DNA of 64,000 nt from an uncultured virus (IMG/VR IMGVR_UViG_3300046499_000512) (Duplodnaviria > Heunggongvirae > Uroviricota > Caudoviricetes), in IMG/VR virus record IMGVR_UViG_3300046499_000512. The stretch is one strand, 5' to 3'. This document shows, piece by piece, positions 6,263-63,590 of this stretch; the stretch's first letter is position 1; each line of letters begins with the position of its first letter. The notes beneath the pieces are model-generated. The model made no database searches, was not told the DNA's origin, and saw nothing but the letters and a program-made list of their open reading frames with translations. Both the position numbers and the translations under genes were made by a program.

Positions 6263-6342
6263 GTCGTGCTCCTGGGTATCGGGTATATCTACCCTAGCAC
6301 GAAGGGCGGGAGGCTGCAAAAGCCATCCCGCCCTGCCACCTG

Positions 6343-6510
6343 CTATCGAACCGGCTTCACCAACACGATGGGATCCGGACACAGGAACTCCAGGTCCCCG
6401 TTGGCCAGTTCATGCATCCAGGCCAGCCCCGTCCGCTGCTTCTCATACACGATCGGACCCTTGCAGTGCGGGCAATGGGTCAAAGGAATCCTGGTTGCCT
6501 GTATCGCCAC
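6343..6510 (-). CDS. 55-aa Zn-ribbon-like protein
   Basis: Hand translation MAIQATRIPLTHCPHCKGP..WMHE..LCPD; GGGAG RBS; variant motif at 6536. Confidence 0.5.
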   Translation of the reverse strand: MAIQATRIPLTHCPHCKGPIVYEKQRTGLAWMHELANGDLEFLCPDPIVLVKPVR

Positions 6511-6603
6511 GACATCTCCCCGGCATATGGCGTGAGGATATCTACGCTAGCGCGGAAGACCGGCGGAGGGTAGCGGAACGTGGCGAACCGCTACCCTCCG
6601 AGA

Positions 6604-7320
6604 TCAAGAACGCTGCTTCCGCATCTTCGCTTCCACCCGCAGCACAGCCATCGCCAACCGCTCCGCAGACACCCCGCGTTCCCGGTCGGTCCACCCGAAA
6701 GCGATAGACGCCGCAGCCGCCTGCATGGCGCTCTCCGCCTGCTCCGGGGTACGCGTCGGCAGCATCGGGGAGAACTCCGGAACGTAGACGGCCGTACCGT
6801 CCTTGACCCGCCACTCCCCCGCCAACTCCCCATCCCCCTCCTCGGAGATGAGCTGAGACGTCAGATCCAGGAACGGGAACGCCTCCGCGATAGCCGTCCA
6901 CTCGGTGGTGACCTCCTCCGTGGAAGGCCACTTGCCGATGTTGTAGTTGTCGCAGTAGATCCGGCCGTCCCAGTCGCACCATCCGTGCGGGCCGCAGATG
7001 TAGCTGGACGCGATCCGGGACGTGTGCAGGTACTCCCCGCCGAAGATGCCCAGTTCATCCATGCGGGCATCCCGGGCGGCCCAGCGCTCCCGGTACCAGG
7101 CCATGCGCCGCTTAGGGTCCTTCTCGATCTCGGGGTCCTTCGGCCAGTCCTCGCCGAGGTTGAACCCCATGATCTTGCCGACCACTGCGGCCCACTCGGG
7201 GTCGTTGCCCCGCAGATAATCCGGGACGCAGGTACGGACCAGGATCTCGTCCGCCTGTGCCGGGGTGACGGTCTTGCCGGAGACCAGCAGGCGCGGCCAC
7301 TTCGTCAGATCGTGATACAT
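6604..7320 (-). CDS. Hypothetical protein
   Basis: 238-aa ORF with GAGG RBS and protein-like composition. Confidence 0.7.
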   Translation of the reverse strand: MYHDLTKWPRLLVSGKTVTPAQADEILVRTCVPDYLRGNDPEWAAVVGKIMGFNLGEDWPKDPEIEKDPKRRMAWYRERWAARDARMDELGIFGGEYLHTSRIASSYICGPHGWCDWDGRIYCDNYNIGKWPSTEEVTTEWTAIAEAFPFLDLTSQLISEEGDGELAGEWRVKDGTAVYVPEFSPMLPTRTPEQAESAMQAAAASIAFGWTDRERGVSAERLAMAVLRVEAKMRKQRS

Positions 7321-7371
7321 GATTACCTCTCGTAAACGGTGAAAGGGGGCCCGAAGGCCCCCAGTTGGGTC

Positions 7372-7872
7372 TTACCAGCCCATTTTCCCTGCGCAAATCG
7401 GCCCAATTCCGGCAGAAACGGACTCGGGGTTCGTCAGGAGCTTCGAGCAGACGCAGCAGTGACCTGTCTTCTTACCGAAGAACTGCGCCTGGTCCGCCGT
7501 GAGCTTGTCGGTCAGCGTCAGCTTGTAGATGCCGCCCGGGGCGAACTCCCACTTGGTGTAGCCGCCGACCCAGATCTTCGCGTAGCGCTTGCCGGACGTC
7601 TTCGAGGTCTGAACCTTGTAGTAGTCCGTGCCGACGCAGTAGAAGCCCTCGGGGACGATCTCCGTGACGACCTTCGCCGCGCCGACCTGGGGCTTTGCGG
7701 TCTTCCAGGGGCACTTGGTCAGCTTGTCGATCAGTCGGGAGGCCTCGAAGGAGGGCATGTCCTCGGCAAATCGCGTTGCCAGGCCCAGGGGCACCTGACG
7801 GTCGGCCAGCAGGGTCTTGATGTAGGCGGCCTGCTTGGGGCTGACGGTCTTGGGGGCGAAGGTGGTTGCCAT
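7372..7872 (-). CDS. DUF6011-like Zn-binding protein
   Basis: C-terminal GHCCVCSKLLTNPESVSAGIGPICA; AAGGAG RBS; motif promoter at 7904. Confidence 0.75.
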   Translation of the reverse strand: MATTFAPKTVSPKQAAYIKTLLADRQVPLGLATRFAEDMPSFEASRLIDKLTKCPWKTAKPQVGAAKVVTEIVPEGFYCVGTDYYKVQTSKTSGKRYAKIWVGGYTKWEFAPGGIYKLTLTDKLTADQAQFFGKKTGHCCVCSKLLTNPESVSAGIGPICAGKMGW

Positions 7873-8020
7873 GAGAGGGTCTCCTTGGTTGGTGTCCCTT
7901 GCTGATATATCTACACTAACACTCTCCTGAAAAGGCCGCAACTCTTTTCCGGAAAGATCTTGGAAATCTCTACCCTGTAAGATGGAGACCTCCCGACCCC
8001 ATCACCTGAACGAGGAACCC

Positions 8021-8966: not shown

Positions 8967-9048
8967 GCGCCCGTGGTGGAAATGGCTTACACAACTTCCT
9001 CAAAAGAAGTCGCCGAAAGGCATGCGGGTTCGAATCCCGCCGGGCGTA
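8967..9048 (+). tRNA. tRNA-Leu(CAA), CCA not encoded
   Basis: Acceptor GCGCCCG/CGGGCGT, anticodon arm ACTTC-CTCAAAA-GAAGT, long variable arm GCCGAAAGGC, T arm GCGGG-TTCGAAT-CCCGC, discriminator A. Confidence 0.93.
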
Positions 9049-9088
9049 CGTGACTACCAAACCCCTCCCCCGCTAAGCGGCGGCAGCC

Positions 9089-10052: not shown

Positions 10053-10072
10053 TCAGCCTGATTTGTCTGCCC

Positions 10073-10111
10073 TTGCACACTTCCCTCCGAGTGTGCTAGG
10101 GTAGATACATC
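10073..10111 (+). promoter_or_regulatory. Complete motif promoter: -35 TTGCAC, 18-bp spacer, TGn-TAGGGT
   Basis: TTGCAC 10073-10078, TAGGGT 10097-10102, then AGATACATC; GGAGG RBS before 10134. Confidence 0.8.
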
Positions 10112-10133
10112 GACCACCACCCAGGAGGCTCCA

Positions 10134-11177
10134 GTGAGTCAGCAGACTCTTTCTTCCCTCGTAGGCGGCGCCCTCGGAGACGCCCTCGGCTACAGCCGCG
10201 AGTTCTTCAGCCCCGAGGACATCCTCAGCTACCTCCCCCACGGCGACTGGCGCAAGGCCACCTTCGACAACGCGCCCCACGCCGTCCGTTTCCGGGACCG
10301 GGACGGCAAGGCGCTCATCTCCGACGACACCCAGATGACCATCGCGACCGGCCGGGCCCTCCTGGCTACGGAAGAGATCGGAAGAACGTCCTTCGAAAGC
10401 GAGTTCGCCCAGAACCTGTCCGAGGCGTACGTCTACTGGTCGCGACACCCCGACAACACCCGTGCCCCGGGCGGCGCGTGCATGGCCGCCTGCGGCAAAC
10501 TGGCAAAGGGACAGTCCTGGCAGCAGGCGACGGACATCAACACCATGGGATGCGGCGCCAACATGCGCGTCGCGCCGATCGCCCTGTACAAAAACCCGTA
10601 CACCCCGCCGCCGGTCGACCTGACCTACCTGTCGGCCGCGCAGACCCACGCGCACCCGGCGGCCCTCGCGGCGGCAGGCCTGACGACGGCCGCAATCTCA
10701 GGCGCCTACGACGGCATGACCCCCCAGGAAATCCTGAACATGCTGCTTCTGATGTGCCAGCCCGGCTACGCCACGTACCCCCTGATGACGCTGGGCAGCC
10801 TGTGGGCGCAGTCCGAATACGACTCGGCCCGTGGCTACATGCAGGCGGGCTACAACCTGTGCGGCTTCTACCTGCGCAAGGCGGACGCCGCGCTCAGGAA
10901 GGGATGGAAGGGCCAGACGGACCCGTGCACGATCACGGGTGACGGCTGGATTGCCCCTCAGGCCCTCGCGGGCGCCGTGCTGTGCGCGGTCGGTCTCTGG
11001 GACAAGCCCGTGCAGGTGCTCCAGCGCGCGGCCGTCTCGAACGGCGACAGCGACTCCCTCGCGGCCATCGCGGGCAACATCCGTGGCGCGGCCGGAGTCG
11101 AGTGGCCGGAGTACCTGGTGAGCCAGTTGGAGGCGGCTCCCCTGCTGGAGCTGCACAAGCTCGCCAAGGCCCTGTAA
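10134..11177 (+). CDS. ADP-ribosylglycohydrolase (DraG/ARH family)
   Basis: GDALG, SDDTQMT, GCGANMRVAPI, THAHP, GDSDSLAAIAG. Confidence 0.92.
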   Translation: MSQQTLSSLVGGALGDALGYSREFFSPEDILSYLPHGDWRKATFDNAPHAVRFRDRDGKALISDDTQMTIATGRALLATEEIGRTSFESEFAQNLSEAYVYWSRHPDNTRAPGGACMAACGKLAKGQSWQQATDINTMGCGANMRVAPIALYKNPYTPPPVDLTYLSAAQTHAHPAALAAAGLTTAAISGAYDGMTPQEILNMLLLMCQPGYATYPLMTLGSLWAQSEYDSARGYMQAGYNLCGFYLRKADAALRKGWKGQTDPCTITGDGWIAPQALAGAVLCAVGLWDKPVQVLQRAAVSNGDSDSLAAIAGNIRGAAGVEWPEYLVSQLEAAPLLELHKLAKAL

Positions 11178-11895: not shown

Positions 11896-12065
11896 CACTT
11901 ACTCACCAGTAACGCCGATAGCCGTCCAGAGGGTTGGGCGGCTATCGGCGTTTTTGCCGGAATTGACAGTTCATCAAGACACGCCTCTCACCAGGCATTT
12001 CACGGTGTTTCAGATCACAGAGTGCTAGACTAGCACCCTCTTGATCACTGGAAAGGACCGGCGAA

Positions 12066-13292
12066 ATGACGACAGATCAGCCCCCGCCTCGGGGTGAAAT
12101 CCCCGCACTGGGGAGGCTCGAAAAGGGCATCCTCGGAACCGTGGTCCTCGGTGCATTGGGCGGTGCCGGGCTGGGTCTTTACTCCTCATTCGACTCCGTT
12201 TCCGCCGCTGCGACGCGCTGGGGATTCGACCCGTCGTGGATTCTCCCGATCGCTCTGGACGTCTCCATCCCGGTCTTTTCTCTGGCGAACCTGCTGCTGA
12301 CCCGCTTCGACATGGCGCTCGCCTGGGTCCGCCTCGTGCCCTGGGGTCTGACCGCCGTCACGGTCTACATGAACGTCGAAGCAGCGGGGTCCAGCTTCGC
12401 GGCCCAGATCGGTCACGGCGCCCTCCCGATGCTCTGGGTGGTGCTCTCCGAGATCGTCGCCCACGTGTACCGGACGAAGATCGGAGCGGTCACCGGTCGC
12501 CGGATGGAGGGGGTCCGCCGGTCCCGCTGGCTCCTGGCACCGACCTCGACCGCCGCCCTGTGGCGCCGGATGAAGCTGTGGGAGATCGTCTCCTACCGGA
12601 CCGCGCTGCGACTGGAACGGAACAGGATCCTGGCGAGGGTCGACCTCCGGGAAGAGTTCGGCTGGGGGTGGCGGTGGAACGGGAAGGCCCGGCGGGAGCG
12701 GGCTCTCCTCCGGCTCGGCGAACTGGAACCGCAGCTCGTTCCGGAACGCGTTCCGGTTCCGGTCGTCGCCGCTGCGGAACTGGAACCGGCTCAGGAGGCA
12801 GCCATAGCTGAACCGAGTTCGGAACTGGAACTGGAACAGCCCCGGGTCCCGCTCACCCGGGTTCCTGAACTGGAACCGGAACAGCCTGCGGAACTGGAAC
12901 AGACCCCCGTTCCGGAACTGGAACCGGGCCCGGAACTGGAACTGGAACAGGCTTCGGAACCGGAACTGGAACCGGAACCGGCGGAACGGAACAGCACGCC
13001 GGTGAACCTGAACAGCCGGGCCGCGAAGAGGAACGCGCAGGTCAGAGAGGTTCTGGAACTTCTGGAACAGTTCGGAACTGACGTCGTGGACCACAAGTAC
13101 GTCACGGACAACACGAGGATCCCCCGGACCACGGCCTACCACCGGCTGAACGAGGCACTGGAACTCTGGAACGAGCGGCAGGCGGCAGTTCGGAACAGCT
13201 CCCGGTTCCGGAACGAGGACCCGGTTCCGAACTTGGCGGGCCCGTTCGATCTGGAACTGGAACCCGGTTCGGAACAGCGGACTGGAACCTGA
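12066..13292 (+). CDS. DUF2637-type membrane protein with ELEP-repeat linker and C-terminal HTH
   Basis: About four N-terminal TM segments, RWLLAP..T..LWRRMKLWE..SY, repeat linker, HTH-like tail IPRTTAYHRL. Confidence 0.75.
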   Translation: MTTDQPPPRGEIPALGRLEKGILGTVVLGALGGAGLGLYSSFDSVSAAATRWGFDPSWILPIALDVSIPVFSLANLLLTRFDMALAWVRLVPWGLTAVTVYMNVEAAGSSFAAQIGHGALPMLWVVLSEIVAHVYRTKIGAVTGRRMEGVRRSRWLLAPTSTAALWRRMKLWEIVSYRTALRLERNRILARVDLREEFGWGWRWNGKARRERALLRLGELEPQLVPERVPVPVVAAAELEPAQEAAIAEPSSELELEQPRVPLTRVPELEPEQPAELEQTPVPELEPGPELELEQASEPELEPEPAERNSTPVNLNSRAAKRNAQVREVLELLEQFGTDVVDHKYVTDNTRIPRTTAYHRLNEALELWNERQAAVRNSSRFRNEDPVPNLAGPFDLELEPGSEQRTGT

Positions 13293-15645: not shown

Positions 15646-15885
15646 TTAGTCGGGGATCTCGATTCCGTGCTCGCGAAGCGTCTGCTCCAGGATGCTGATG
15701 CGGATCCGGGCGCGCTCGGCCCGGCGGGCTTCGTTGGTGACGGCGTACCCCTCCATGACCAGCGTGATGATTTCGCGCTGCTCCGGGTCCCAGGGGTCGT
15801 CCTCATCGGTGGGGATGTAGACCTCATCGGGGAGGTAGCCGTTCTCCTCACGGAACTGGAAGGCTCGCATCTCGCTTAGGTCCAT
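15646..15885 (-). CDS. Hypothetical acidic protein
   Basis: AAGGAG RBS; motif promoter at 15913. Confidence 0.65.
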   Translation of the reverse strand: MDLSEMRAFQFREENGYLPDEVYIPTDEDDPWDPEQREIITLVMEGYAVTNEARRAERARIRISILEQTLREHGIEIPD

Positions 15886-15977
15886 CTCGGTCTCCTTGCT
15901 GGTGTCCGTCGTGATGTATCTACCCTAGCACAGTTGGGGCCAAAGAAGAAACCCCCGGCCGCAGCCGAGGGCTTCTC

Positions 15978-16284: not shown

Positions 16285-16398
16285 TCACAGCTCCTCAGGG
16301 GTGATGCCGCACTCGGTGCAGCCGATGCCTTCTTCGCCGTCGTCCTCGTAGGGCTGCATGTCATGCACACCCAGGGCACAGAGGTCAGCCTGCTCCAT
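16285..16398 (-). CDS. 37-aa acidic Cys/His microprotein
   Basis: Hand translation MEQADLCALGVHDMQPYEDDGEEGIGCTECGITPEEL; AAGGAG RBS; motif at 16426. Confidence 0.55.
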   Translation of the reverse strand: MEQADLCALGVHDMQPYEDDGEEGIGCTECGITPEEL

Positions 16399-16510
16399 CA
16401 CGGTCTCCTTGTCGGTGTCCGGCTTGATATATCTACCCTAGCATGCACGGGGAAGCCCTGGCAATACGAAACCCCCGGCGAGTTCACCGGGGGTCCCAGG
16501 GTCGGGCAGA

Positions 16511-16921
16511 TCAGGCGTTGCGTCGCCGAGCCTGCTCCGCGAGCAGTTCCGCATGCAGTTCCACGGCCGGGGGGTTCGGGTCCTGCTGTATACGCCGCGC
16601 TACCCGGTCGATCGTCACCTGGAGGAAGTCGTCGGTCCAGTCCTCGTACAGCTCCTGCGGACTCAGCCGGTTGGCCAGCAGGCTGATTACCGCCCGGCCG
16701 ACCGCCCCGAGCTGGAGCGGCCCGGAGAAGTCCCCTCCGCGACGGCGGTACTCCTCGTTCGCGACTGTCATGAACGAGGTGCCCAGGCCACCGTCAGGCT
16801 TCGTCAGATCTATGTCGGCCAGCGGGTCGTTCCGCAGGGAGTGGGCCATCCCGATGACGATGGGGTCCTTGCGGAGAGTGGCCACGTTCTCGTCGTAGCT
16901 GCCGGGCTCGATGATGTTCAC
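16511..16921 (-). CDS. Hypothetical protein
   Basis: AGGAG RBS; motif at 16948. Confidence 0.65.
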   Translation of the reverse strand: MNIIEPGSYDENVATLRKDPIVIGMAHSLRNDPLADIDLTKPDGGLGTSFMTVANEEYRRRGGDFSGPLQLGAVGRAVISLLANRLSPQELYEDWTDDFLQVTIDRVARRIQQDPNPPAVELHAELLAEQARRRNA

Positions 16922-16979
16922 GGGTGCTCCTGATGACAGGGTCTGAAGTATCTACCCTAGCCTACTGGCGGCCCGGCTC

Positions 16980-17516: not shown

Positions 17517-17667
17517 GTATCTACCCTAACTCCTAGAGACCGCTGATCCTAGCAAAAGGGCAGGGCACATTGGAGTGCCCTGCCCTGTGATTTTTGCTGT
17601 TCAGACGCAGCGTGAGAGGACTCCGGCGGCGCTCTAGGGTCGCGGGTCTACTGCCTCACGGAAGGCG

Positions 17668-51079: not shown

Positions 51080-51327
51080 GCCTGGCGCTCCTTGGTCTTG
51101 CCCTGGAAGTACCAGCCCCATCCGGCGAATCCGGCGGCGAACAGTGCGGCGAACAGCTCCCCGTGAAAGACCGCAGAGACGGCGCTCAGGGCGAGGACGT
51201 AGCAGAGGCCTGCCGGTATCCAGAACAGCTTGCGCATGGTGATGCAACTCCTTCATTGGATGTATCTACCCTAGCAAAAAAGGTGGGGGGCTGCAAGAAA
51301 CCCTGCAACCCCCCACCCCGCCCGAAC

Positions 51328-53256: not shown

Positions 53257-53592
53257 TCAGTCCTTGTTGCAGTCGTAGCAGGAGCACCAGGCAGCATCGA
53301 CGTGCTGATCAGGCACCAGGCCCGCCGTGGCCATCGCGATGTTCGCCATGTTCAGGTCGAGGCCCGCGTTCCTGAAGTGCTTGATGTTCTCCTGCACTTC
53401 GCCGCGCGCCGTCACGAGGAACCACGGCTCTTGTTCGCGCAGGAGGTGTTCGCCGTGAAAGACCCGCCAGAACGTCTGTCCGTTTTTCAGCCAGTCGATC
53501 TGATGACGCACGCCGTGCTGGCCGTTCCACTCCCAGCGATAGCCACCGCCGTCGAGCTTCTCGGCCGTTTTCAGGGTCTGCTTGTGCGCCAT
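53257..53592 (-). CDS. Hypothetical protein (C-terminal CSCYDC)
   Basis: TAATG coupling; operon under the motif at 53746. Confidence 0.6.
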   Translation of the reverse strand: MAHKQTLKTAEKLDGGGYRWEWNGQHGVRHQIDWLKNGQTFWRVFHGEHLLREQEPWFLVTARGEVQENIKHFRNAGLDLNMANIAMATAGLVPDQHVDAAWCSCYDCNKD

Positions 53593-53834
53593 TAGAAGAC
53601 CACCCGAACGACCAGGTACGTGACAAGGGCCGCGAAGAGGCCGAAGCCGACCGCGAGTGCCACGTACTTCCAGTTGGTCAGAATGTCCTTGATCAGATAG
53701 CGAGTCACGTCGTCCACGGCGAGTCTCCTTGAGTAGGTGTCTCTTGATTTATCTACCCTAGCACACTGCGCGCAGGGGAACAACCAGCACAGCAAAAAGC
53801 CCCCGCCGGGAAGACGGGGGCCCCTGCCGGAACG

Positions 53835-54035
53835 TCAGCCCTGCATCAGGTTCCGCTTGACGTGATCACCAGCTCGGGCCACCAGCTCTTCGTAGGAGAA
53901 GCCCAGGTCGGACCAGCCAGCCGCCGCCGCGAACTGTGCCGCAACGCGCCGCTTGCCCTGGGGCATCATGTCGGTCATGGTCTCCACGAAAACCAGGTGG
54001 ACGGCAATCTTGTTGATCTTCGGCATGTCGTACAT
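53835..54035 (-). CDS. Hypothetical protein
   Basis: GGGAG RBS; motif at 54063. Confidence 0.65.
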   Translation of the reverse strand: MYDMPKINKIAVHLVFVETMTDMMPQGKRRVAAQFAAAAGWSDLGFSYEELVARAGDHVKRNLMQG

Positions 54036-54126
54036 GAGGACTCCCCTGGGTTGGTGTGTCTTGATGTATCTACCCTAGCATATATGAAAGAAGGGATGCA
54101 ACCCGACAGGGCTACATCCCTTCTCG

Positions 54127-54477
54127 CTAGCGACGGCCGAAGAACCACACCCGGCGGCCCTGTTCCCGAAGATCAGGCGCCTTCGGAGGCTGCGGCAGCG
54201 CGTGGCACTCCCGGCCGTAGTACCGCAGCCCTGTCCCCGGGAGAACCCAGGGTCGCGGGTGGGTACCTACCGGCCCGGGGTCATACGCCATCTCCCGGCC
54301 CTCGTACGGGGCCATGGAGCAGACGACGACCAGACCGGCGTCCCGGGCCCAGCGCAGCATCTTGGTGTGCTGAGGACCCCGGTTGTAGCAGAACTGGAAA
54401 CCTCCGGAGCAGTACTCCCCGCCGGACGTGTAGACGGGGACCTTGCAGGAGGGGCAGCGATAGGGTGTGTCGCTCAT
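54127..54477 (-). CDS. Hypothetical Cys-containing protein
   Basis: GAGGAG RBS; motif at 54500. Confidence 0.65.
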   Translation of the reverse strand: MSDTPYRCPSCKVPVYTSGGEYCSGGFQFCYNRGPQHTKMLRWARDAGLVVVCSMAPYEGREMAYDPGPVGTHPRPWVLPGTGLRYYGRECHALPQPPKAPDLREQGRRVWFFGRR

Positions 54478-55263
54478 GAGTCGTTCTCCTCGGTGTCTCG
54501 ATATATCTACCCTAGCATATGGACCCTGGAAACAGAAGAGAGCCCCACCCTCGGCCGTGAGTTCCTAGGCCCAACCGAGAGGGGACTCTCTCCTGCGGTA
54601 CACCGTGGAGCCACCAGACTAGCCCGTCATCGGCTCCACCAGATCCGGCCTGAACTGGACGAACTCCTCCACCAGTTCATCCCCCTCACCGTTGATCTCC
54701 GAGATCCGCCCCGACCCGAACGGGACCAGGATCTCGAACGGCTTCGACTCATCCAGCCGAACCAACAGGCCCACCGTCGTGATCATCACCGACGGGTAGA
54801 GGACAAGCTCCGCCCGATCGGCAGACCAGACCATCGCAGACAGCATCAATTCCCCTTCTGTGCGTCCAGGATGTCCCGGACCTCGCGGATCGGCGTACGG
54901 AACCGCATCGCCACCATCATCAACGGCGAGTGATACCAGCCCTTGGCATACCCACGGCGGTACTCCCGGTTCTGGCGAACAGCCTTCCAGTACAGGTACA
55001 TCCGGCGTTCCCGGGTCTGGCTCACACCGCGCTCCCGTCCGGGTACAGGCCCTCGTTGAACCGGTCCCCACCCAGCTCCCAGGCAGCCGCGAAGGCCTCC
55101 CGGACAGCCACCGGAGCCTTCTCCACCCAGCCGGGGTATGCCGGGGCGGTGCGGGCGTGCTCCGGGCCGTACGCGGCCACGAAGTTGGCGTGGTCCCAGC
55201 CACGGTCCAGGCCTATGGCCGTCGCGCGGTCCAGCTCCGAAACGTCGGCGGTGAAGTCGATCA

Positions 55264-55596
55264 TCAGTTCTCCTCGGTGCGGTTGGTGACGGTGATCTTG
55301 TAGGCGGAGGTGCCCTCGGTGGGCTCGAACATCGTGGCGGTGTAGCGCTGCGACAGGCGGCGCTCCATCAGGTGCATCTCCTTGTCGACCAGCTCGCGGC
55401 GTCTCTCCGGCGGCATGTGGGAGGCGTGGGATCCGAGCGTGTAGCGGACCTCGGTCCACCCGTCCTGGTCGTGGACCTCGAAGCCGCTGGTGGTGATGGG
55501 GAAGCCCTTGATGCGGGTGGCCCGGTTCTGGCTCCGGTGGAAACCGCCTCGGGAGAGGAAGGCACTGACGGCGTTCGGCCTGGTGCTGTACGGCAT
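55264..55596 (-). CDS. GF.V..FEP.EG paralog family member
   Basis: GAGGAG plus ATG at 55596; motif at 55625. Confidence 0.7.
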   Translation of the reverse strand: MPYSTRPNAVSAFLSRGGFHRSQNRATRIKGFPITTSGFEVHDQDGWTEVRYTLGSHASHMPPERRRELVDKEMHLMERRLSQRYTATMFEPTEGTSAYKITVTNRTEEN

Positions 55597-55885
55597 GGGG
55601 ACTCTCCTCGGGTTGGTGTGTCGGGATATATCTACCCTAGCACGAGGTGAGGAAGGGGGCAACAGGTCCGGACACGACAAACCCCCTGTGGGGTCAAACC
55701 CGCGCCGGGGCTCGTCCACAAGGGGTTTGTCTCCCTTTGACCGTCGCAAGACGGGCATTCCGCACCTTACACACGAAAGTCCCAAAGACGTCTGTGGGAC
55801 ACGGCAAACCCCCCGGAGGTCGCAGCCACTAGCCTGGCTCGCTCACGGGGGGTTTGCCCTCACTGGAAGGTGAAGCAACACGCTA

Positions 55886-56267: not shown

Positions 56268-56552
56268 TCAGGCGAGACCGTGGATCTGGTCCAGGGTGAC
56301 GAAGTGCAGGAAGCCCTTGGAGGCGATTCGAGCGCGCGTGATGCCGTCCACGTCGTCGCGGATGTCATCGAGACGGCCCGTGAGGTACTGGCCGTCATAG
56401 GTGAAGGCGACCTTCTTGCCGATGCGCCCCAGGTGGGCCAGCTTGTCGGCGAGGGCGTCCACGGCCGCGCCCTGGTCGATGTCGAAGTCAGAGGCGCCCC
56501 GGTAGAGGCCGATGGCGCGCGTGATGATGTCGATGTCCTGGGGCGTGAACAT
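56268..56552 (-). CDS. Hypothetical protein
   Basis: AAGGAG plus ATG at 56552; motif at 56584. Confidence 0.65.
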   Translation of the reverse strand: MFTPQDIDIITRAIGLYRGASDFDIDQGAAVDALADKLAHLGRIGKKVAFTYDGQYLTGRLDDIRDDVDGITRARIASKGFLHFVTLDQIHGLA

Positions 56553-56748
56553 GGAAGTCTCCTTGAGTCGGTGTCTCCTTGGTGATGTATCTACCCTAAC
56601 ACATAGGGTGTGACTTAGGCAACAGGAAAGCCCCCCGGGCATATCCCAGAGGGCTAAACGCACAAAAAAGCAGAGGCCCACCAGGAAACCCGGTAGGCCT
56701 CGCACCCATCCGCCGCGACGGACAGGGGAATGAGCTACACCCTAGCAA

Positions 56749-58109: not shown

Positions 58110-58505
58110 CTAGTTGTCCTGACGGCTCCAGGCAGCCCGGTCGGATCGCGTCTCCATGCGCTCGAAGTAGTCGTCTTCGGTCTCGCCGGGAAGCTGGTAC
58201 TCGGCGTCCTCGGAGGTGACCTTGAGCCAGAAGTCGGCGCCCTCGGTCGGCTCGAACAGGGTGACTTTCCAGCCCTTGCGGGAGAGGGCTTTCTCCATGA
58301 GGCGCATCTGCTCGCAGACGGTCTTCCTGTTTTCGCGCTCGGGGGCCCCGACATAGCCCCCGAGGACGTAGACGATCTTGGAGTCGCCGTTGTCCTCCCG
58401 GGTGACCTTGAAGCCGCCGTAGACAAGGGCAGGGCGCTCGGGGTTCTTGTAGTGAGGGGCAAATCCGGCGTTCATCAGGGCCTGCTCGGTGTGCTTCGGG
58501 TCCAT
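58110..58505 (-). CDS. GF.V..FEP.EG paralog family member
   Basis: YGGFKV..LSRKGWKVTLFEPTEG..FWLKV; motif at 58533. Confidence 0.7.
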   Translation of the reverse strand: MDPKHTEQALMNAGFAPHYKNPERPALVYGGFKVTREDNGDSKIVYVLGGYVGAPERENRKTVCEQMRLMEKALSRKGWKVTLFEPTEGADFWLKVTSEDAEYQLPGETEDDYFERMETRSDRAAWSRQDN

Positions 58506-58604
58506 GGTGACTCTCCTTGGTCGGTGTGTCTTGATGTATCTACCCTAGCACATACAAAGAGGGGGCACAACCAGACGGCTGCACCCCCTCGATAAACCCC
58601 GGAC

Positions 58605-58937
58605 CTAGAACTCGGTGCCCTTGTCGGCCGCGAGGAACGCCTCCCGGTCCAGCTCCGCCGCACCCAGCTTGATCCCGCGCTCCCGCATGAACCCCTTGTG
58701 CAGATACACCGCGTGCCGGTGATCCACCCCGCGTACCCGGAGACGGCCGCTGTACCGGTCGGTGAGGAAGATCCGCAGGCGGGTGGGACTGGTCTTGACG
58801 ACCTTGGTGACTATGCCGTCCACATCGCCGCTGTCCTTCCAGGTCTTCCGGAAAGTCGGAGCATGGAAGAAGGCAGGCATTCCGGGGCGCAGCACGTAGG
58901 CGGCGGTTCGGACGTGGGTGTATTCGGAGTCGGGCAC
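58605..58937 (-). CDS. Hypothetical protein
   Basis: AGGAG RBS; motif at 58966. Confidence 0.65.
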   Translation of the reverse strand: MPDSEYTHVRTAAYVLRPGMPAFFHAPTFRKTWKDSGDVDGIVTKVVKTSPTRLRIFLTDRYSGRLRVRGVDHRHAVYLHKGFMRERGIKLGAAELDREAFLAADKGTEF

Positions 58938-59000
58938 GGGAGTCTCCTGGGGTGGTGTCTCACTGGATGTATCTACCCTAGCAGACTCCCGTATGGGGTG

Positions 59001-59804
59001 CTACTCCCCCAGAGCCTTAGCCCGCTCCAGGATGGCGTCCCACGGCGCACCCGTGCCCAGACCCAGAGCCCGCGACAGAGCAAGACGGCGGGCCTCCGCA
59101 TCCGCCTCCACCCGCTGCTTCTCACGATTGAGACGGCTGTTCGTCTCCCGAGCCGCGTCATAACCGTCATCCGGCGTAACCCGGACCGTAGCCCCGTCCT
59201 CGCAGCGCTCCATGCCGTGCCACATCTCGCCGTCACAGTCCGGCACCCACTCCGCCGTGACCGGAACCGGCTCCATGTACACCAGGTCCGCCCAGTCGCC
59301 CCAGGAATCCCCCGGAGGCAGCCCGCACGCGGCGTGCACCAGGCTGGGGCCGCCCTCCTCGATCCCCAGGGTGTACCGGTTGTCCCCGGGCGGACAGAGG
59401 CAGCCCGACGGGCCGTAACCCTCAAGGTCCGGGCTCTCCCCCTCGTTGACGGCGCAGAACGTGATCGTGATGGGGTCGGTGCCGGTGAGAAGCCACTCCA
59501 CGGTGACCCCGGTAGCCTCCGCGATCTGGGCAAGGTCGGTGCTGCTGGGCCGCTCGTAGCCCAGGATGATGCGGCGCAGGTGGTCGGAGTCCATGCCGGT
59601 GGCGGCGAACCGGGGAGCCCCGACCTCGACGTTGGCCCAGACGTGGCGGATGCGTTCGAGGATGGCGGCCCGGACGTCCACAGGGGGCTTCTCAGGGGTT
59701 GCGGGGGTGAGGGGTTCGTCGCAGGCGCAGGGTTCGCCGAAGAGGCGGGCCGGGCACCGGTTGGTGCGGTGTACGGGGTGACCGCAGGCTTCGCAGACGT
59801 CCAT
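59001..59804 (-). CDS. Protein containing an XRE-type HTH and Cys clusters
   Basis: FAATGMDSDHLRRIILG..RPS..DL..IA.A.GV.VEWLLTG; motif at 59832. Confidence 0.65.
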   Translation of the reverse strand: MDVCEACGHPVHRTNRCPARLFGEPCACDEPLTPATPEKPPVDVRAAILERIRHVWANVEVGAPRFAATGMDSDHLRRIILGYERPSSTDLAQIAEATGVTVEWLLTGTDPITITFCAVNEGESPDLEGYGPSGCLCPPGDNRYTLGIEEGGPSLVHAACGLPPGDSWGDWADLVYMEPVPVTAEWVPDCDGEMWHGMERCEDGATVRVTPDDGYDAARETNSRLNREKQRVEADAEARRLALSRALGLGTGAPWDAILERAKALGE

Positions 59805-59905
59805 AGGGGCGCTCCAGGGGTATCGGGGTGTGGTGTATCTACCCTATCGCAGAAAGGCCCCTGAGGGAGTCCCCAGGGGCCTTGCAGGAGGCTACGTGGA
59901 AGGCT

Positions 59906-60208
59906 TTACACCCGTTCGATCTTCACTCCGCCACGGGGGCCGTTCTTGACCAGGGCGGAGGGGTAGTCGAAGGGGCATCCGGAGGTCTTGAACTCCAGGG
60001 CCTCCTCCCAGTCGATCTCCGTGTAGGGGTAGAGGCTCCCGGTGCAGCCGTACTCTCCGTTGGTCTGGAGGTCCTGGTAGAAGCCCGTGGCGTGGCCGTA
60101 GAGGATGAGGGCGGCCTTGCAGGATTCGAGGTTGGTGTGGCGCTCCAGGGTGAAGCCGCCGAGGGGGTTGTGCAGGTACATGATCCAACGGAAGTTGCTG
60201 GGGGCCAT
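59906..60208 (-). CDS. Hypothetical protein
   Basis: C-terminal YP......GPRGGV..E; motif at 60236. Confidence 0.7.
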   Translation of the reverse strand: MAPSNFRWIMYLHNPLGGFTLERHTNLESCKAALILYGHATGFYQDLQTNGEYGCTGSLYPYTEIDWEEALEFKTSGCPFDYPSALVKNGPRGGVKIERV

Positions 60209-60306
60209 GGTGAGTCTCCTTGTTCGGTGTCTCTTGATATATCTACCCTAGCATGTATGGAAAAGGGCCGCAACCCTGTAGGTGCGGCCCTTCCGGTGCA
60301 GTCAGG

Positions 60307-60804
60307 TCAGACGATCTTCAGCCAGAACCCGGTACCCGTCTCCGGCTCGAACACGGTCACCTTGTGGCCCTTCCGGGAGAGCAGCCACTCCATCCGGTGG
60401 ATCCGTACCCCCACGATGTCCCGGTGGGTGTCCTCGGGGGGCTGAGGCACGACGTTGCCGATGGTGTATTCGACCAGGGTGTCTCCGTTGACCTGGGGGA
60501 TGATCCGGAAGCCCCCGTAGGTTCGGCCGCTGATGGTGACGGCGGGGAGGTATCCGGCGTTCCGGAGGTCGTTGTCGATCTTCTCGGAGGTCTCGGTGAC
60601 CAGGGAGACGTCCTTGTAGGAGACCTTGGTGTAGTCGCCGGTGTACTGGCCGTCCGCGTCGATGAAGCCGACCTTGATCGTTCCGTAGGCGTTGTTGTAG
60701 CCCATGGCGATTCCGATGGTTCCGGCGGCCCAGCCGTTGGTGGGGCTGATCTGGACACGGGCCCGGGTGGTGACGGCGTAGTCGATTTGGGCGGAGGTGA
60801 GCAT
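60307..60804 (-). CDS. GF.V..FEP paralog family member with extra N-terminal domain
   Basis: YGGFRI..LSRKGHKVTVFEPETGTGFWLKI; motif at 60832. Confidence 0.7.
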   Translation of the reverse strand: MLTSAQIDYAVTTRARVQISPTNGWAAGTIGIAMGYNNAYGTIKVGFIDADGQYTGDYTKVSYKDVSLVTETSEKIDNDLRNAGYLPAVTISGRTYGGFRIIPQVNGDTLVEYTIGNVVPQPPEDTHRDIVGVRIHRMEWLLSRKGHKVTVFEPETGTGFWLKIV

Positions 60805-60907
60805 CTGGAGTCTCCTTGTTCGGTGTCTCTTGATGTATCTACCCTAGCATGCACAGAGAAGGGGCGCAACCCCTAAGGATCACGCCCCCTGCCCTGCTGC
60901 GCCCTGA

Positions 60908-61276
60908 TCAGAAGCCCGGGGCCTCCAGGACGATCTCCGCCGTCTTGAACGCCTCCCATCGGGCCAGGGCGGCGAACTTGACGGTCTGGCGCTGCTCCGG
61001 GGTGGGCCACAGGGTGAGGGTTCCGACAAGGCCCTGGTTCACGAGGGCGACCATGTGGACGTGGATCACGGCGTTGCCCGGGAGGGTGTTGGTGTGGATC
61101 TCGCCGGTTTGGTAGTGCTTGATCGTCAGGGTGATCTTGTTCTCGCCCGTCTTGACGGCGTCCTGGACGGTGCCGCCCGTGAGGATCCACTTCCCGTCGA
61201 CCTTGACGCTGTAGCTGACGGGGAGGCCCTTGATGGCTCCTGCGGCCGGGATCTCCATGAACTTCTTGAGCGCCAT
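60908..61276 (-). CDS. Hypothetical protein
   Basis: AGGAG plus ATG at 61276; motif at 61311. Confidence 0.65.
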   Translation of the reverse strand: MALKKFMEIPAAGAIKGLPVSYSVKVDGKWILTGGTVQDAVKTGENKITLTIKHYQTGEIHTNTLPGNAVIHVHMVALVNQGLVGTLTLWPTPEQRQTVKFAALARWEAFKTAEIVLEAPGF

Positions 61277-61386
61277 CGGAATCTCCTGGGTGTTGGTGTC
61301 TCCGTGAGGTGATGTATCTACCCTAGCACATAGGAAAAGGGGGCTGCAAGCCGAAGCCCACAACCCCCCTCAGAAACCCCGCCCTA

Positions 61387-61725
61387 TCAGCCCGTCCGCA
61401 TCACCCAGAACGGCATCCGGTCCCGCAGCACCTTTACCCCCGGGAGCGCACACACCCCGTCCTGAGGGGCCAGGTGATCCATCACCACCTCCAGGGGGAT
61501 GAACGGCCGTGGCCCCTTGCAGGCGTGCAAGAGCAGGTCCGGGGGGCAGCCGCAGTCCGGGGAGCAGTTCAGCATCTTGTCCACGGTGACAGCCGTACCC
61601 ACCGGTACAGACTCCCGCCAGGCTTCGATATGGGCGAGAAGCCGGGCATCCAGGTCGGGGTAGAGGGCGTAGAGGGCTTCCCGGGTGACGGTGATACCGC
61701 CGGGCATCGGGGCAGTCATGATCAT
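61387..61725 (-). CDS. Hypothetical protein
   Basis: AAGGAG RBS; ATGA coupling to the upstream gene. Confidence 0.55.
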   Translation of the reverse strand: MIMTAPMPGGITVTREALYALYPDLDARLLAHIEAWRESVPVGTAVTVDKMLNCSPDCGCPPDLLLHACKGPRPFIPLEVVMDHLAPQDGVCALPGVKVLRDRMPFWVMRTG

Positions 61726-62810
61726 TCTCCTTCGGGTGTAACAGGGGTGAGGTCCGACTCCCAGCACCAGCCCTTGTCGCCGTTCTCGAACTCCACGTAG
61801 GCGTCCCAGGCGTCCCGGCCGCCGTTGTAGCGGCTCTTCTTGATCACGCCGTAGGAGTCGTCGTAACGAACCCGGGCGGTGAGGGGATAGATCGGCTGGT
61901 TGCCTCCCACGGTGAGGGGCGAAAGGGTCTGGGGGATGACGGGTGCCACGGTGTCCCGGGGGAGGCCGCAGATGCCGCAGTGCGTCCAGGGCTTGCCGTC
62001 CTTGCCTACGGCGGGCTGGTCTTCTCCGTCCAGGGCGGTTACCCAGGTGTGGGTGTGAGGGGCGGTCTGGGGGCGGCTGGGGTCGCGGAGGGGTTCGGGG
62101 AAGCCCGGGATGATGTCGGCCCGGGTGAGGGCGTCGGGGATGTCCAGGTCGCGGTGCCACAGGACGATCACGTCAACATCCCCGTCCTTGAGGGCCCGGC
62201 GGATGAGCTGGTAGGCCACGGGCGGGTGTTCGGCGTCCTCGGGGTCGTGGGCGGTGATGACGGCGTCCACGGTGTAGCCGCATTCGAGGGCGTAGAGGCG
62301 TAGGCGGGTGCGGTGGTAGAGGTCGGATCCGTCCAGGTCGATCTGGGGGTGTCCGACGTAGATGACGGCGTGCAGCGGGGTGTCTGTCACGGGGAGGGTC
62401 TCCTTGAGGGCGGTCTGGGTGAGGGCCTTGGCCTGGGCGGGGGTGTATCCGGCCTGGAGTGCTCCGGAGGCGAGCTGTTCGGCGCGGTCTTCTCGGAGGA
62501 TCTGGGCGATGTGGTCGGCCTGGGGGCTCGGGATGGAGGCGGTGGGGCGGCTGGAGACGGCCTCGGTTACCGGCTGGTAGTACTTGCAGAAACGGTCGGC
62601 ACGCAGGGCCCGGGGTGTTCCGGGGCGGCCCTTGGTGATGTCCGCCTGGGTGCGTTCGAGGTAGCGCACGATCTGGTGTGAGGGGCGGTTGTCGTAGGCG
62701 GCCTCGGGGGTGATCTGTTCGATCCGGGCGGTGGCGGCGGTGCCGTCGAGGGCTTCGTACAGGGCGCCTTCGCGGAGGTCTTCGGGGCGCAGCGGGGGTG
62801 TGTCGGGCAT
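61722..62810 (-). CDS. Multidomain protein with a degenerate serine-resolvase-like domain
   Basis: AVIYVG..LRLYA..GY.V..D..P..L..G.VDVIV...RD; AGGAG RBS. Confidence 0.55.
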   Translation of the reverse strand: MPDTPPLRPEDLREGALYEALDGTAATARIEQITPEAAYDNRPSHQIVRYLERTQADITKGRPGTPRALRADRFCKYYQPVTEAVSSRPTASIPSPQADHIAQILREDRAEQLASGALQAGYTPAQAKALTQTALKETLPVTDTPLHAVIYVGHPQIDLDGSDLYHRTRLRLYALECGYTVDAVITAHDPEDAEHPPVAYQLIRRALKDGDVDVIVLWHRDLDIPDALTRADIIPGFPEPLRDPSRPQTAPHTHTWVTALDGEDQPAVGKDGKPWTHCGICGLPRDTVAPVIPQTLSPLTVGGNQPIYPLTARVRYDDSYGVIKKSRYNGGRDAWDAYVEFENGDKGWCWESDLTPVTPEGE

Positions 62811-62870
62811 GGTGGTGTCTCCTGGTGTGGGCGGGCCCTCCAGGGTGTTCTGGAGGGCCCGGGGCGGGGT

Positions 62871-63149
62871 CTAGAGGCGGGGCAGCCAGCCCGGCACGTA
62901 CGCGTGAAGGCAGTTCGGGGTGCTGATCCGGCGCTCCCACCCGGCGGCCCGGAACACGGTGTCCAGGCGTTCGAACAGGTACTGGCGGGTGACTCGGAGG
63001 TGGCCGGGGGTGGCTTCGATGATCAGGGCCTGGTGGCTGTATCGGGTGGTGTAGGCGTCTCGCATGTAGGGGGCGGTCCCGAAGGCCTCGGCCAGGAGGG
63101 CGGCTGCCTCGGTGTGCAGGCGGGTTTCGTCGGCTCCGTCGTGGCTCAT
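62871..63149 (-). CDS. Hypothetical protein, paralog of 55886-56209
   Basis: LFERLDTVFRAAGWERRIS..HAYVPGWL; motif at 63179. Confidence 0.7.
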   Translation of the reverse strand: MSHDGADETRLHTEAAALLAEAFGTAPYMRDAYTTRYSHQALIIEATPGHLRVTRQYLFERLDTVFRAAGWERRISTPNCLHAYVPGWLPRL

Positions 63150-63269
63150 GGGGACTCTCCTGGGTTCGGTGTGTCTGTTGTATCTACCCTAGCACGTGGA
63201 GTAGCGGGCGTGCAAGGCGCAGCATGAAGCCCCCTCCAGGGCGGGCTGGAGGGGGCTCGGGGCTGGGTG

Positions 63270-63515
63270 TTACTTGCAGGCGGGGTACTGCGCGCCCATG
63301 GAGCAGGACTCGTAGGTTCCGGCGGGGATGACCACGGCGTGGGTGTGTCCGGCCTTGTCGGTGACGGTGAGGGTGGCTCCCTTGGCCTGCATGACCGCTC
63401 CGCCGGTACGGCTGGTGACGGTGCCCTTGACGTTGCTGGAGTCCTCCAGGTTGCAGGCGGTGGCTCCGAGGGCGACGGTGGCGGCGATGATGGCGGCGGC
63501 TGCGGTCTTGTTCAT
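63270..63515 (-). CDS. Small lipoprotein
   Basis: Signal peptide with lipobox ATAC; motif at 63547. Confidence 0.7.
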   Translation of the reverse strand: MNKTAAAAIIAATVALGATACNLEDSSNVKGTVTSRTGGAVMQAKGATLTVTDKAGHTHAVVIPAGTYESCSMGAQYPACK

Positions 63516-63590
63516 CGGGATTCTCCTTGGTGGTGTTCCCTGAGCTGATGTATCTACCCTAGCACATGGCGTAGCACGGGAACAACCCCC

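Follow-up and report, generated by a model that had tools for sequence, protein, structure and literature searches.

Genomic context of the box array

The DNA analysed here, a stretch of 64,000 nucleotides (hereafter the window) from an uncultured virus of the Caudoviricetes (IMG/VR record IMGVR_UViG_3300046499_000512), carries an array of short repeated boxes ahead of its genes. The consensus of the box is TGCTAGGGTAGATACATC, which is 18 bp long and is numbered here from position 1 to position 18. The window has a G+C content of 65%, and 123 genes were called in it with a motif-blind, codon-usage caller written for this analysis. The gene content is that of a tailed phage, including a Mu-like portal protein, TerL, an exonuclease, an endolysin, a prim-pol, a dCMP deaminase, and a tRNA-Leu. 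The TerL protein shares 41% identity with those of Streptomyces phages of the Crosby group. The endolysin aligns along its full length with that of Streptomyces phage phiSASD1 at 62% identity, and 75 of its 107 matches come from Streptomyces phages. Because of these similarities, the host is probably Streptomyces or a close relative. A megablast search with 24 kb of the window and a blastn search with one cassette head gave no match among 50,697 phage records, so that no cultured phage is matched at the DNA level. Streptomyces phage Crosby has no such box; its 50 kb gave a single match at three or fewer mismatches and no core.

Occurrence and placement of the box

With up to three mismatches, the box was found at 47 places in the window, 17 of them exact, against a chance expectation of 0.01 on average and 1 at most in 100 dinucleotide-preserving shuffles; with up to four mismatches, the number of places rose to 51. 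A weight matrix built from the 47 copies and applied at a threshold of at least 12 bits located 53 copies between positions 6282 and 63564. None of the 53 lies within a called gene, and 50 of them face a gene. In 49 copies the predicted transcription start (box position 16, see below) falls 0–37 nt ahead of a same-strand start codon, and in one weak copy it falls 78 nt ahead; the other three copies (minus strand, 10060, 25637, and 41664) have no gene ahead of them, and each is the inverted partner of a copy beside it. Measured from its end, the box stands 17–35 nt from the start codon or overlaps with the codon. Three related genomes, G001, G002, and G003 (89, 125, and 76 kb), were studied together with the window. 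These four genomes hold 222 matrix copies, none within a called gene, and 181 of the 222 lie 0 or 15–45 nt ahead of a same-strand start codon.

The array had been described in a first-pass annotation as about 55–58 copies of a box of about 17 bp, all intergenic or abutting a start codon and nearly all aimed at the next gene. The array is real and its placement is borne out; the count is slightly lower, at 53, and the box measures 18 bp. The strand blocks of that description also recur, with minus-strand copies up to 23.4 kb (and a plus-strand copy at 10094), plus-strand copies from 23.7 to 49.2 kb, and minus-strand copies from 50.5 to 63.6 kb. Its further statement that no box precedes portal/TerL, the endolysin, prim-pol, and the recombinase pair holds for the position directly before these genes but fails for two of them at the level of the unit: prim-pol comes second in the unit headed by the box at 21249, and the box at 38194 heads a six-gene unit that contains the endolysin. 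A literature search found no description of the box in print, the 12-mer TAGGGTAGATAC occurring, among the papers listed, only in unrelated ones, and the supplements of a Streptomyces coelicolor transcription start site paper contained no promoter sequences with TAGGGT.

Predicted promoter anatomy and transcription start

The 50 gene-facing copies of the window were aligned on the box and displayed as a logo. T-12, A-11, and T-7 of a TANNNT hexamer (TAGGGT at -12 to -7) are present in all 50 copies, and the TG of an extended -10 element (-15/-14) is found as T-15 in 40 copies and G-14 in 48. The middle GGG of the hexamer is kept in 47–49 copies. The discriminator AGATA (-6 to -2) has A-6, G-5, A-4, and A-2 in 50/50 copies and T-3 in 49/50, so that GGG and AGATA are as invariant as the key bases of the -10 element; A+1 is present in 46 copies. 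In the -35 region, 40 of the 50 copies have the T and about half have TTG, beyond which the hexamer is not conserved; the optimal -35 spacer is 17 or 18 in 45 copies. From -7 to +2, the box has 22% G+C in a genome of 65% G+C.

The transcription start was placed by a natural experiment, the fusion of the box to start codons. Five window copies end in ATG, not ATC, and each of these ATGs is the start chosen by the caller for a gene without a Shine-Dalgarno sequence. In the four genomes, all 24 copies with ATG or GTG at box positions 16–18 open reading frames of 66–323 amino acids, and 21 of these frames had already been called with that start, without a Shine-Dalgarno sequence, by the motif-blind caller. 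Since leaderless translation requires the mRNA to begin with the start codon, these fusions point to a +1 at box position 16, that is, the A of the final ATC or ATG, 7 nt past TAGGGT. The extended -10 geometry, the weak -35, and this start support the proposal of the first-pass annotation that the box is a promoter, and the assignment to an extended -10 promoter of the principal-sigma type is well supported as a prediction from sequence.

These features agree with promoters of related bacteria. According to the available text of PMC5511352, 15% of the -10 elements of Mycobacterium tuberculosis carry TGn, and the bubble of the mycobacterial open complex (RPo) spans -11 to +2; the conserved block of the box, -15 to +3, coincides with the open-complex zone. 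For Streptomyces, the available text of PMC4895711 gives TANNNT as the -10 element, 21% of mRNAs as leaderless, and 30–39 nt as the commonest length of 5' untranslated regions, and both the features of the box and the lengths of its leaders fit this description.

Distribution in related phages and cellular genomes

A search of IMG/VR with the exact 18-mer returned 39 stretches of 8 contigs, none of which is the window, with flanks 67–88% identical. Five IMG/VR relatives carry 51, 53, 40, 20, and 19 copies at three or fewer mismatches, and the reversed control gave 0. With the weight matrix, G001, G002, and G003 yielded 59, 63, and 47 copies, none within genes. These three genomes are syntenic with the window but mosaic, and 35–52% of the window aligns with them at 67–88% identity. 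In G002, which is 97% complete, the region from 52 to 88 kb, a block of TerL, portal, MuF, capsid, tail, and holin genes, contains a single copy, and the first 32.8 kb of G001 contain none. Because these structural blocks are nearly free of it, the box belongs to the non-structural genes. No common late promoter was evident by eye in the structural blocks.

The exact 18-mer was also searched in 185,579 bacterial and archaeal genomes, one per species (596 Gb), and was found once, in a metagenome-assembled genome of a spirochaete. The box is not a signal of the host, and no known prophage carries it; the first-pass annotation had named an equal density of the motif in host DNA as evidence that would speak against its proposal, and the search gave a single exact occurrence. 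Relatives at intermediate distance were not found, as a TerL search gave 18 loci at 85–100% identity and 3 at 25–29%, and a search of IMG/VR with the NarL-type protein described below returned the same lineage only. Sequencing runs listed as containing DNA of the phage are four rhizosphere metagenomes, and no RNA run was among those listed.

Conservation of individual copies

Among reciprocal-best orthologue pairs in which the window gene is headed by a box, the box is retained in 75 of 85, at a mean protein identity of 61%. In start-anchored, ungapped comparison, identity is 0.30–0.45 in the flanks, 0.81–0.95 in the four blocks of -15 to +3, and 0.76 at the T of the -35 region. Copies of the window are unrelated to one another outside the 18-mer, where mean identity is 0.30 in the leaders and 0.31 upstream. 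Leader identities of at least 70% are confined to 13 of 1378 pairs, from a few neighbouring copies. Orthologous copies differ from each other at 1.46 positions; when the pairings are shuffled, the difference is 2.33 ± 0.06, and none of 2000 shuffles was as low (136 orthologous pairs, which are phylogenetically non-independent). Because the box is kept amid randomised flanks and orthologous copies share their own variants, the data fit purifying selection acting on each copy at its own site and speak against homogenisation across the genome.

The signs of recombination between copies are weak. In five genome pairs, box junctions show no excess of synteny breaks over other gene junctions (Fisher p 0.39–1.0). 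Among 24 clean indels, 2 run from one box copy to another, and the alignments overlap there by 18–31 nt that contain the box; these comparisons involve genomes of about 70–85% nucleotide identity, which are too diverged for a fair test of recombination. The two indels lie at window positions 44322/44696 relative to G001 (cassette 44345–44662) and 42757/44707 relative to G003 (three cassettes, 42776–44662). About 4 further indels have one end on a box, and the other 18 or so of the 24 fall elsewhere. Exchange from box to box does happen, and the evidence for it as the main source of mosaicism is weak. The first-pass annotation had offered spread by duplication and homogenisation as one account of the array; the unrelated flanks, the site-specific variants, and the pattern of breaks and indels leave it mostly unsupported. 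The order of one-gene cassettes is permuted between window positions 58110–63515 and G001 77.9–84.6 kb, where several neighbours are paralogous; for instance, window genes 58110 and 60307 both match G001 80943.

Leaders, hairpins, and transcription units

Copies that are not fused to a start codon are followed by leaders of 19–37 nt, which are A/C-rich (T 9%) and carry AAGGAG. In 26 of 44 leaders, ACACC is present a few bases ahead of AAGGAG (for example, 15880–15912, 23065–23091, and 60209–60235), and such leaders may enhance translation. Within small groups of leaders, identity reaches 80–90%.

The 60 nt upstream of the box (-75 to -16) have a mean folding energy of -25.5 kcal/mol, compared with -19.1 kcal/mol in coding controls, and in 28 of 53 copies the upstream hairpin falls under the 5th percentile of the controls (Mann-Whitney p 3e-9). 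Many copies show a GC stem of 10–18 bp whose short terminal T run directly adjoins the TG (42742, 44036, 44305, 44709, and 51259), and in the copies at 58533 and 60832 the TTG of the -35 region sits in the 3' arm of the stem. Between 42.0 and 61.5 kb, 15 terminator-like sites were found, against 7.2 ± 2.7 in shuffles. Box-headed units contain one gene in 25 cases, two genes in 11, and three genes in 8, and larger units are rare; by a simple rule, 106 of the 123 window genes fall into box-headed units, with a median length of about 111 amino acids. Most of the genes in these units have no family in Pfam or PHROGs, and 22 of the 123 window genes have no homologue in any of G001, G002, and G003. 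The first-pass annotation had described units of mostly one to three small genes closed by a hairpin. The size holds (44 of 50 units), but "mostly" is too much for the hairpin, which is strong in 28 of 53 copies; about half of the units would thus be terminator-promoter cassettes, as predicted from their folding, that resemble the PeSL cassettes of T4-type phages compared below.

The discriminator and a second promoter class

The association of the discriminator with the -10 element was assessed independently of the motif in the 80 nt ahead of every called gene of the four genomes. These regions contain 185 TGNTANNNT sites, 153 of which are followed directly by AGATA; AGATAY lacking an in-register TANNNT was seen just 5 times. 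Of 138 TGNTAGGGT sites, 132 have AGATA. Together with the logo, this result bears out the first-pass statement that GGG and AGATA are fixed beyond the needs of a principal sigma factor. The other 32 of the 185 are extended -10 sites without AGATA, and some of them are conserved. In the window, TGCTAGACT at 12023–12031 (+) stands 43 nt before gene 12066–13292 (DUF2637), and TGTTAGCAT at 667–675 (-) stands 42 nt before the portal gene (1–633); both are kept in G001, G002, and G003. Because the same phages conserve extended -10 sites that lack it, AGATA marks a promoter class and is not a general requirement of the polymerase. Promoters of the box type can be written as TGNTAGGGTAGATA-like promoters.

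Inverted pairs and a candidate binding protein

Inverted pairs of the box core AGGGTAGATA are conserved at three orthologous places in the four genomes: at 25637–25675, 41664–41702, and 39468–39512 in the window, 49515–49553, 63246–63285, and 61453–61499 in G001, 25105–25143 and 16319–16365 in G002, and 31696–31734, 16789–16827, and 20782–20828 in G003. Two of the pairs are arranged back to back with a gap of 9–10 bp, and the partner provides TTGTAT at the -35 position of the forward copy. In the window, the partner TACTAGAGTAGATACAAC at 25637–25654 (-), which has no gene behind it, reads TTGTAT on the plus strand 17 bp before the -10 element of the copy at 25658–25675 (+; one mismatch), the predicted start of which lies 34 nt before gene 25707–26060 (+). 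Likewise, the partner TACTAGGGTAGATACGCA at 41664–41681 (-), also without a gene behind it, stands back to back with the copy at 41685–41702 (+; one mismatch), which has its predicted start 36 nt before gene 41736–42692 (+; ArdC/M78-like). The third pair is face to face with a gap of 17–19 bp; in the window it is a plus-strand box with four mismatches and an inverted partial copy, forming a 14-bp inverted repeat of CTAGGGTAGATAGC that is kept at the orthologous place in G001, G002, and G003. Two base pairs that extend the stem of this pair change on both sides in a compensatory manner. The gene behind it is conserved and has no recognisable DNA-binding family.

A candidate factor for binding the box, proposed by inference, is a protein of 178 amino acids encoded at 16980–17516 (-), with a helix-turn-helix (HTH) domain of NarL/DosR/GerE type (residues 5–63) and a Cys/His-rich C-terminal part that contains two HGT..A..H...C..C modules. 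The protein is present in all four genomes at 45–47% identity and is always leaderless behind a box without TG. In the window this box is AGTTAGGGTAGATACATG at 17514–17531 (-), which has three mismatches and the last three bases of which are the start codon; a second extended -10 element, TGCTAGGAT, lies just upstream at 17546–17554. The best match of the protein in a profile search against PDB chains was DosR (E 1e-8), and the ESM Atlas gave only sub-threshold matches.

Individual copies along the window

In the following description, distances run from the predicted transcription start to the start codon of the gene. The two leftmost copies are on the minus strand, with TGCTAGGGTAGATATACC at 6282–6299 (two mismatches) 22 nt before gene 5162–6262 and TGTTAGTGTAGATATATC at 7904–7921 (three mismatches) 34 nt before gene 7372–7872. 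The exact plus-strand copy at 10094–10111 stands 25 nt before gene 10134–11177, which encodes an ADP-ribosylglycohydrolase; its inverted partner, a degenerate minus-strand copy at 10060–10077 (four mismatches), has no gene behind it. In the minus-strand block up to 23.4 kb, exact copies are found at 15913–15930 (30 nt before gene 15646–15885), 19194–19211 (35 nt before 18646–19161), 22055–22072 (32 nt before 21525–22025), and 23092–23109 (30 nt before 22723–23064). Copies with one mismatch lie at 16426–16443 (30 nt before 16285–16398) and at 21249–21266 (32 nt before 20620–21219, encoding TerD, which is followed in the same unit by prim-pol, 19546–20517), and copies with two mismatches at 16945–16962 (26 nt before 16511–16921) and 23366–23383 (37 nt before 23128–23331). 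Weak copies with five mismatches occur at 18552–18569, where the core TAGGGTAGATA is retained (23 nt before 18301–18531), and at 22657–22674 (32 nt before 22331–22627).

The plus-strand block opens with a weak copy of five mismatches at 23730–23747, 23 nt before gene 23768–24208. Besides the inverted pairs, its left half contains a doubtful weak copy, CGCTACGGTAGACACATC at 26130–26147 (three mismatches, 78 nt before 26223–26681), another weak copy at 26915–26932 (six mismatches, 34 nt before 26964–27200), and exact copies at 27429–27446 (29 nt before 27473–27727), 28569–28586 (right after a 13-bp GC hairpin, 27 nt before 28611–29375), 29675–29692 (26 nt before 29716–29985), and 31287–31304 (32 nt before 31334–31651). 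Four leaderless copies end in an ATG that is the start codon of the gene: 30250–30267 (gene 30265–30801), 35219–35236 (35234–35620), 35683–35700 (35698–35931), and 38194–38211 (38209–38913), the last of which heads the six-gene unit that includes the endolysin gene (40699–41604). Between them, a copy with three mismatches at 37121–37138 stands 27 nt before gene 37163–38146.

Further along the plus-strand block, four copies in succession follow a hairpin. The copy at 42742–42759 (three mismatches, right after the hairpin, 19 nt before 42776–43993) marks the left edge of a 1.9-kb stretch that is missing in G003, and the copy at 44036–44053 (one mismatch, right after the hairpin) lies 19 nt before gene 44070–44264. 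The exact copy at 44305–44322 heads the one-gene cassette 44345–44662, which is missing in G001, the indel being bounded by this copy and by that at 44709–44726 (one mismatch, 20 nt before 44744–45247). The block ends with copies at 45325–45342 (three mismatches, TTGTATCTACCCC at -35, 22 nt before 45362–45496), 46990–47007 (one mismatch, TAGTGT, 31 nt before 47036–47374), and 49187–49204 (two mismatches, 30 nt before 49232–49456).

On the minus strand at the right of the window, copies with one mismatch lie at 50481–50498 (31 nt before gene 50006–50452), 53746–53763 (31 nt before 53592–53717), 54500–54517 (25 nt before 54127–54477), 55625–55642 (31 nt before 55264–55596), 56584–56601 (34 nt before 56268–56552), 60236–60253 (30 nt before 59906–60208), and 63177–63194 (30 nt before 62871–63149); the leader of the copy at 60236 is 90% identical to that of the copy at 60832. 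Exact copies are those at 51259–51276, right after an 18-bp hairpin with a T run at 51319–51280 (24 nt before 51076–51237), 54063–54080 (30 nt before 53835–54035), 58533–58550, where a 14-bp hairpin at 58590–58559 holds the -35 TTGTGC in its 3' arm (30 nt before 58110–58505), 58966–58983 (31 nt before 58605–58937), 60832–60849 (30 nt before 60307–60804), 61311–61328 (37 nt before 60908–61276), and 63547–63564 (34 nt before 63270–63515). A copy with three mismatches at 59832–59849 stands 30 nt before gene 59001–59804, which encodes an HTH repressor-like protein.

Other genes of the phage

The sole Rfam match in the window is the tRNA-Leu gene (anticodon CAA) at 8967–9049 (+). A tyrosine integrase-like gene and a serine recombinase-like gene lie at 33402–35200 (+), and each is present in some of the relatives only. 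An orthologue of the integrase was found only in G002; the orthologue of the HTH repressor-like gene 59001–59804 (-) was found only in G001. Because none of the 185,579 genomes holds a box-bearing prophage, a temperate life style is doubtful. The genes at 5162–6262 (-) and 35931–37058 (+) are distant paralogues of PHROG 6160, the function of which is unassigned, and the second sits in a leaderless unit.

The ADP-ribosylglycohydrolase gene (10134–11177, +) behind its exact box is kept in all relatives. In G002, a head-module protein of 1931 amino acids (59587–65382, locus L079) has a C-terminal ADP-ribosyltransferase domain as its sole domain match. The presence of both enzymes suggests a host takeover based on ADP-ribosylation. 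T4 Alt offers an analogy for a host polymerase modified by a phage, and that an ADP-ribosylated host polymerase might read the box is speculation by that analogy.

Interpretation of the box

We consider it probable (roughly 0.7) that the box is the standard promoter of the non-structural early and accessory genes of this phage and is read by the host polymerase with its principal sigma factor. The phages would form an uncultured lineage of Streptomyces type, with a genome size of about 125 kb. The host polymerase, carrying a sigma factor of HrdB/SigA type, would recognise the box as an extended -10 promoter, with a weak and optional TTG at -35 and a spacer of 17–18, and would start transcription at the A of the final ATC or ATG. 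The resulting mRNA would carry an A/C-rich leader of 19–37 nt with AAGGAG or, behind a box ending in ATG, would be leaderless. About half of the copies have a GC-rich hairpin adjoining or overlapping the -35 region, in many cases with a short T run, and this hairpin may act as a terminator, so that each unit of one to three small genes would be a self-contained terminator-promoter cassette. Structural genes would be served by other signals, and each copy would be maintained in place by purifying selection and not through copying from other sites. The conserved block, -15 to +3, matches the zone in which the holoenzyme contacts the non-template strand of the open complex. Since phages with proteins of only about 60% identity share an identical box, its reader is most simply a host protein. 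The weakest step is that AGATA (-6 to -2) and GGG would be read by the polymerase itself, through contacts of sigma region 1.2 and the beta subunit together with easy melting; sigma region 1.2 and beta are known to contact the discriminator.

Several points weigh against this interpretation. A principal-sigma promoter needs neither GGG in the hexamer nor a fixed discriminator, and the promoter class marked by AGATA exists beside conserved extended -10 sites without it (among the 32 of 185). Only about half of the copies show a clear TTG at -35, and the conserved inverted pairs are unexplained by a simple promoter. A scan of 42.0–61.5 kb for E. coli-type consensus promoters returned 0 sites (1.7 in shuffles), because TAGGGT shares only three of six bases with TATAAT. 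Part of the apparent invariance of the box reflects ascertainment by the box itself, a bias that the test on the 80 nt ahead of genes lowers and does not remove. The gene calls are home-made, the host is deduced from protein similarity, and the lack of a match to PF00940 (T7-type polymerase) in the five relatives is a weak exclusion, as the positive control was silent too.

It is possible, though we hold the idea only tentatively, that the box is a composite promoter-operator, in which one phage protein binds GGGTAGATA (-10 to -2) and switches the whole early gene set; the best candidate would be the 178-residue HTH protein. The first-pass annotation had likewise suggested that one phage or host factor might read the whole box and switch the accessory genome as a single regulon. 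GGG and AGATA are fixed and occur always together and in register, other conserved promoters of the same phages lack both, the conserved inverted repeats of the core have the shape of a dimer site, and the candidate, which is found in all four genomes, is made from a leaderless copy of the box. NarL and DosR half-sites contain GGG(G)TA / GGGAC. However, an identity of 45–47% between genomes with an identical box is unexpected if the protein reads an invariant site; the limits of the conserved block, -15 and +3, are exactly those of the contact zone of the polymerase; and most sites are single and asymmetric, whereas GerE-type proteins usually bind as dimers. A wider form of the idea, which we judge doubtful to the same degree, would have one phage factor, either the HTH protein or a host polymerase altered by ADP-ribosylation, flip about 50 promoters through GGGTAGATA, with the inverted pairs as high-affinity dimer sites. 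If true, it would be a genome-wide switch by one factor within the discriminator, a mode of control undescribed for actinophages. That the box is instead part of a mobile, PeSL-like cassette, spread by duplication, homogenised by recombination, and shuffling gene cassettes, seems unlikely. The PeSLs of T4-type phages act in this way according to the available text of PMC2839356, and the two indels bounded by boxes, the four or so with one end on a box, the permuted cassette order between 58 and 64 kb of the window and G001, and the near-identical leaders of a few neighbouring copies would be in keeping with it. The copies are nevertheless unrelated beyond the 18-mer, hence there is no longer repeat unit; orthologous copies keep site-specific variants, most indels lie elsewhere, synteny breaks are not enriched at boxes, and survival of the box at 75 of 85 orthologous genes, with proteins at 61% identity, requires selection.

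Two further readings have a very small probability. A promoter of a phage-encoded RNA polymerase or sigma factor, following the logic of T7, N4, or phiKZ, would account for a block of 18 bp that is nearly invariant, extends over the start site, and is missing from cellular genomes, in which it resembles promoters of single-subunit polymerases; the T7 promoter spans -17 to +6. The box nonetheless has the full grammar of a principal-sigma promoter (TG, TANNNT, TTG at -35, and a spacer of 17–18 bp). No Sigma70_r2 domain was found above the cut-off in the five relatives (G001–G005, one of them 97% complete), a single match of 14 bits lying inside the NarL-type gene, and Pfam scans of 121 window proteins and 87 proteins of G002 revealed no polymerase family. 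Slighter still is the chance that the boxes are asymmetric repressor sites of the stoperator type, which would halt elongating polymerase in a prophage. Many asymmetric sites with an orientation that tracks transcription recall the 13-mers of phage L5 (available text of PMC9283540), R4-like Streptomyces phages have such sites (available text of PMC10276819), and the window contains an integrase and an HTH repressor-like gene. Every copy, however, has promoter geometry, and 24 of 24 copies ending in ATG or GTG start a gene; the integrase and the repressor-like gene are each absent from two or more box-bearing relatives, the 185,579 genomes contain no prophage copy, and the profile search against PDB chains gave only NarL/GerE-type HTH matches and none to a repressor of the stoperator type.

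If the box is a host-read promoter as we propose, the accessory genome of a large uncultured soil actinophage would be organised with one compact promoter per one to three small genes, and these early genes are likely to serve host takeover and anti-defence. The more than 200 sites in the four genomes form a natural data set on how the discriminator is read, which is poorly known for high-G+C bacteria. The box may also serve as a specific marker for this phage lineage and its early genes in metagenomes, and the box with its natural hairpins and its leadered and leaderless starts provides compact expression parts to try in Streptomyces.

Comparison with known systems

Early promoters with a uniform, phage-specific consensus are known from T4 and from Streptomyces phage phiC31, and those of phiC31 have repeated repressor sites, conserved inverted repeats, nearby. 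Among repeated elements of actinophages, the SAS/ESAS of cluster K mycobacteriophages are a 13-bp asymmetric repeat at the ribosome-binding position, 3–7 bp from the start codon, to which a role in translation is ascribed (Pope et al. 2011, PMC3203893, available text). Like the box, the SAS is confined to the non-structural half, stands before unrelated gene families, is kept across subclusters, is not found in hosts, and sometimes occurs with an inverted repeat. In contrast, the box occupies -15 to +3 of a promoter, 19–37 nt ahead of the start codon or fused to it. By position the box falls outside the SAS/ESAS class, its end lying 17–35 nt from the start codon or overlapping it.

Stoperators of cluster A mycobacteriophages (L5 and Bxb1) and of R4-like phages comprise more than 20 short asymmetric intergenic sites; they belong to temperate phages and are bound by a repressor, which prevents initiation at one promoter and elongation at other places (available text of PMC9283540 and PMC10276819). 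The boxes resemble them in being many intergenic asymmetric sites that are oriented by transcription and conserved across a phage cluster. They differ in that each box is itself a promoter, no repressor is common to all relatives, and no prophage copy was found. Two features that define the stoperator class, sites that are not promoters and a shared repressor together with a temperate style, are thus absent.

The PeSL cassettes of T4-type phages phi1 and RB49, present in 52 and 51 copies, combine a strong sigma-70 promoter with a stem-loop terminator and stand before ORFans in plastic regions; the stem-loop may overlap the -35 or sit upstream, and a Shine-Dalgarno sequence and start codon end the cassette (Arbiol et al. 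2010, PMC2839356, available text). The present phages likewise have about 50 copies per genome (53, 59, 63, and 47), with the promoter often joined to a predicted terminator hairpin, and the repeated promoter stands ahead of small ORFan genes in plastic regions and is rare in the virion module. Here, only 2 of 24 indels point to recombination between copies, for which there is no statistical enrichment. The host of the present phages would be a high-G+C actinobacterium, and the promoter is an extended -10 with a weak -35, whereas that of PeSL has a -35, a -10, and an AT tract. In addition, the conserved block runs through the discriminator to +3, and about a tenth of the copies are fused to a start codon. 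The general principle known from T4-type phages is here extended to a new group of phages, and what is new is an array in a high-G+C actinophage with an invariant discriminator and leaderless fusions.

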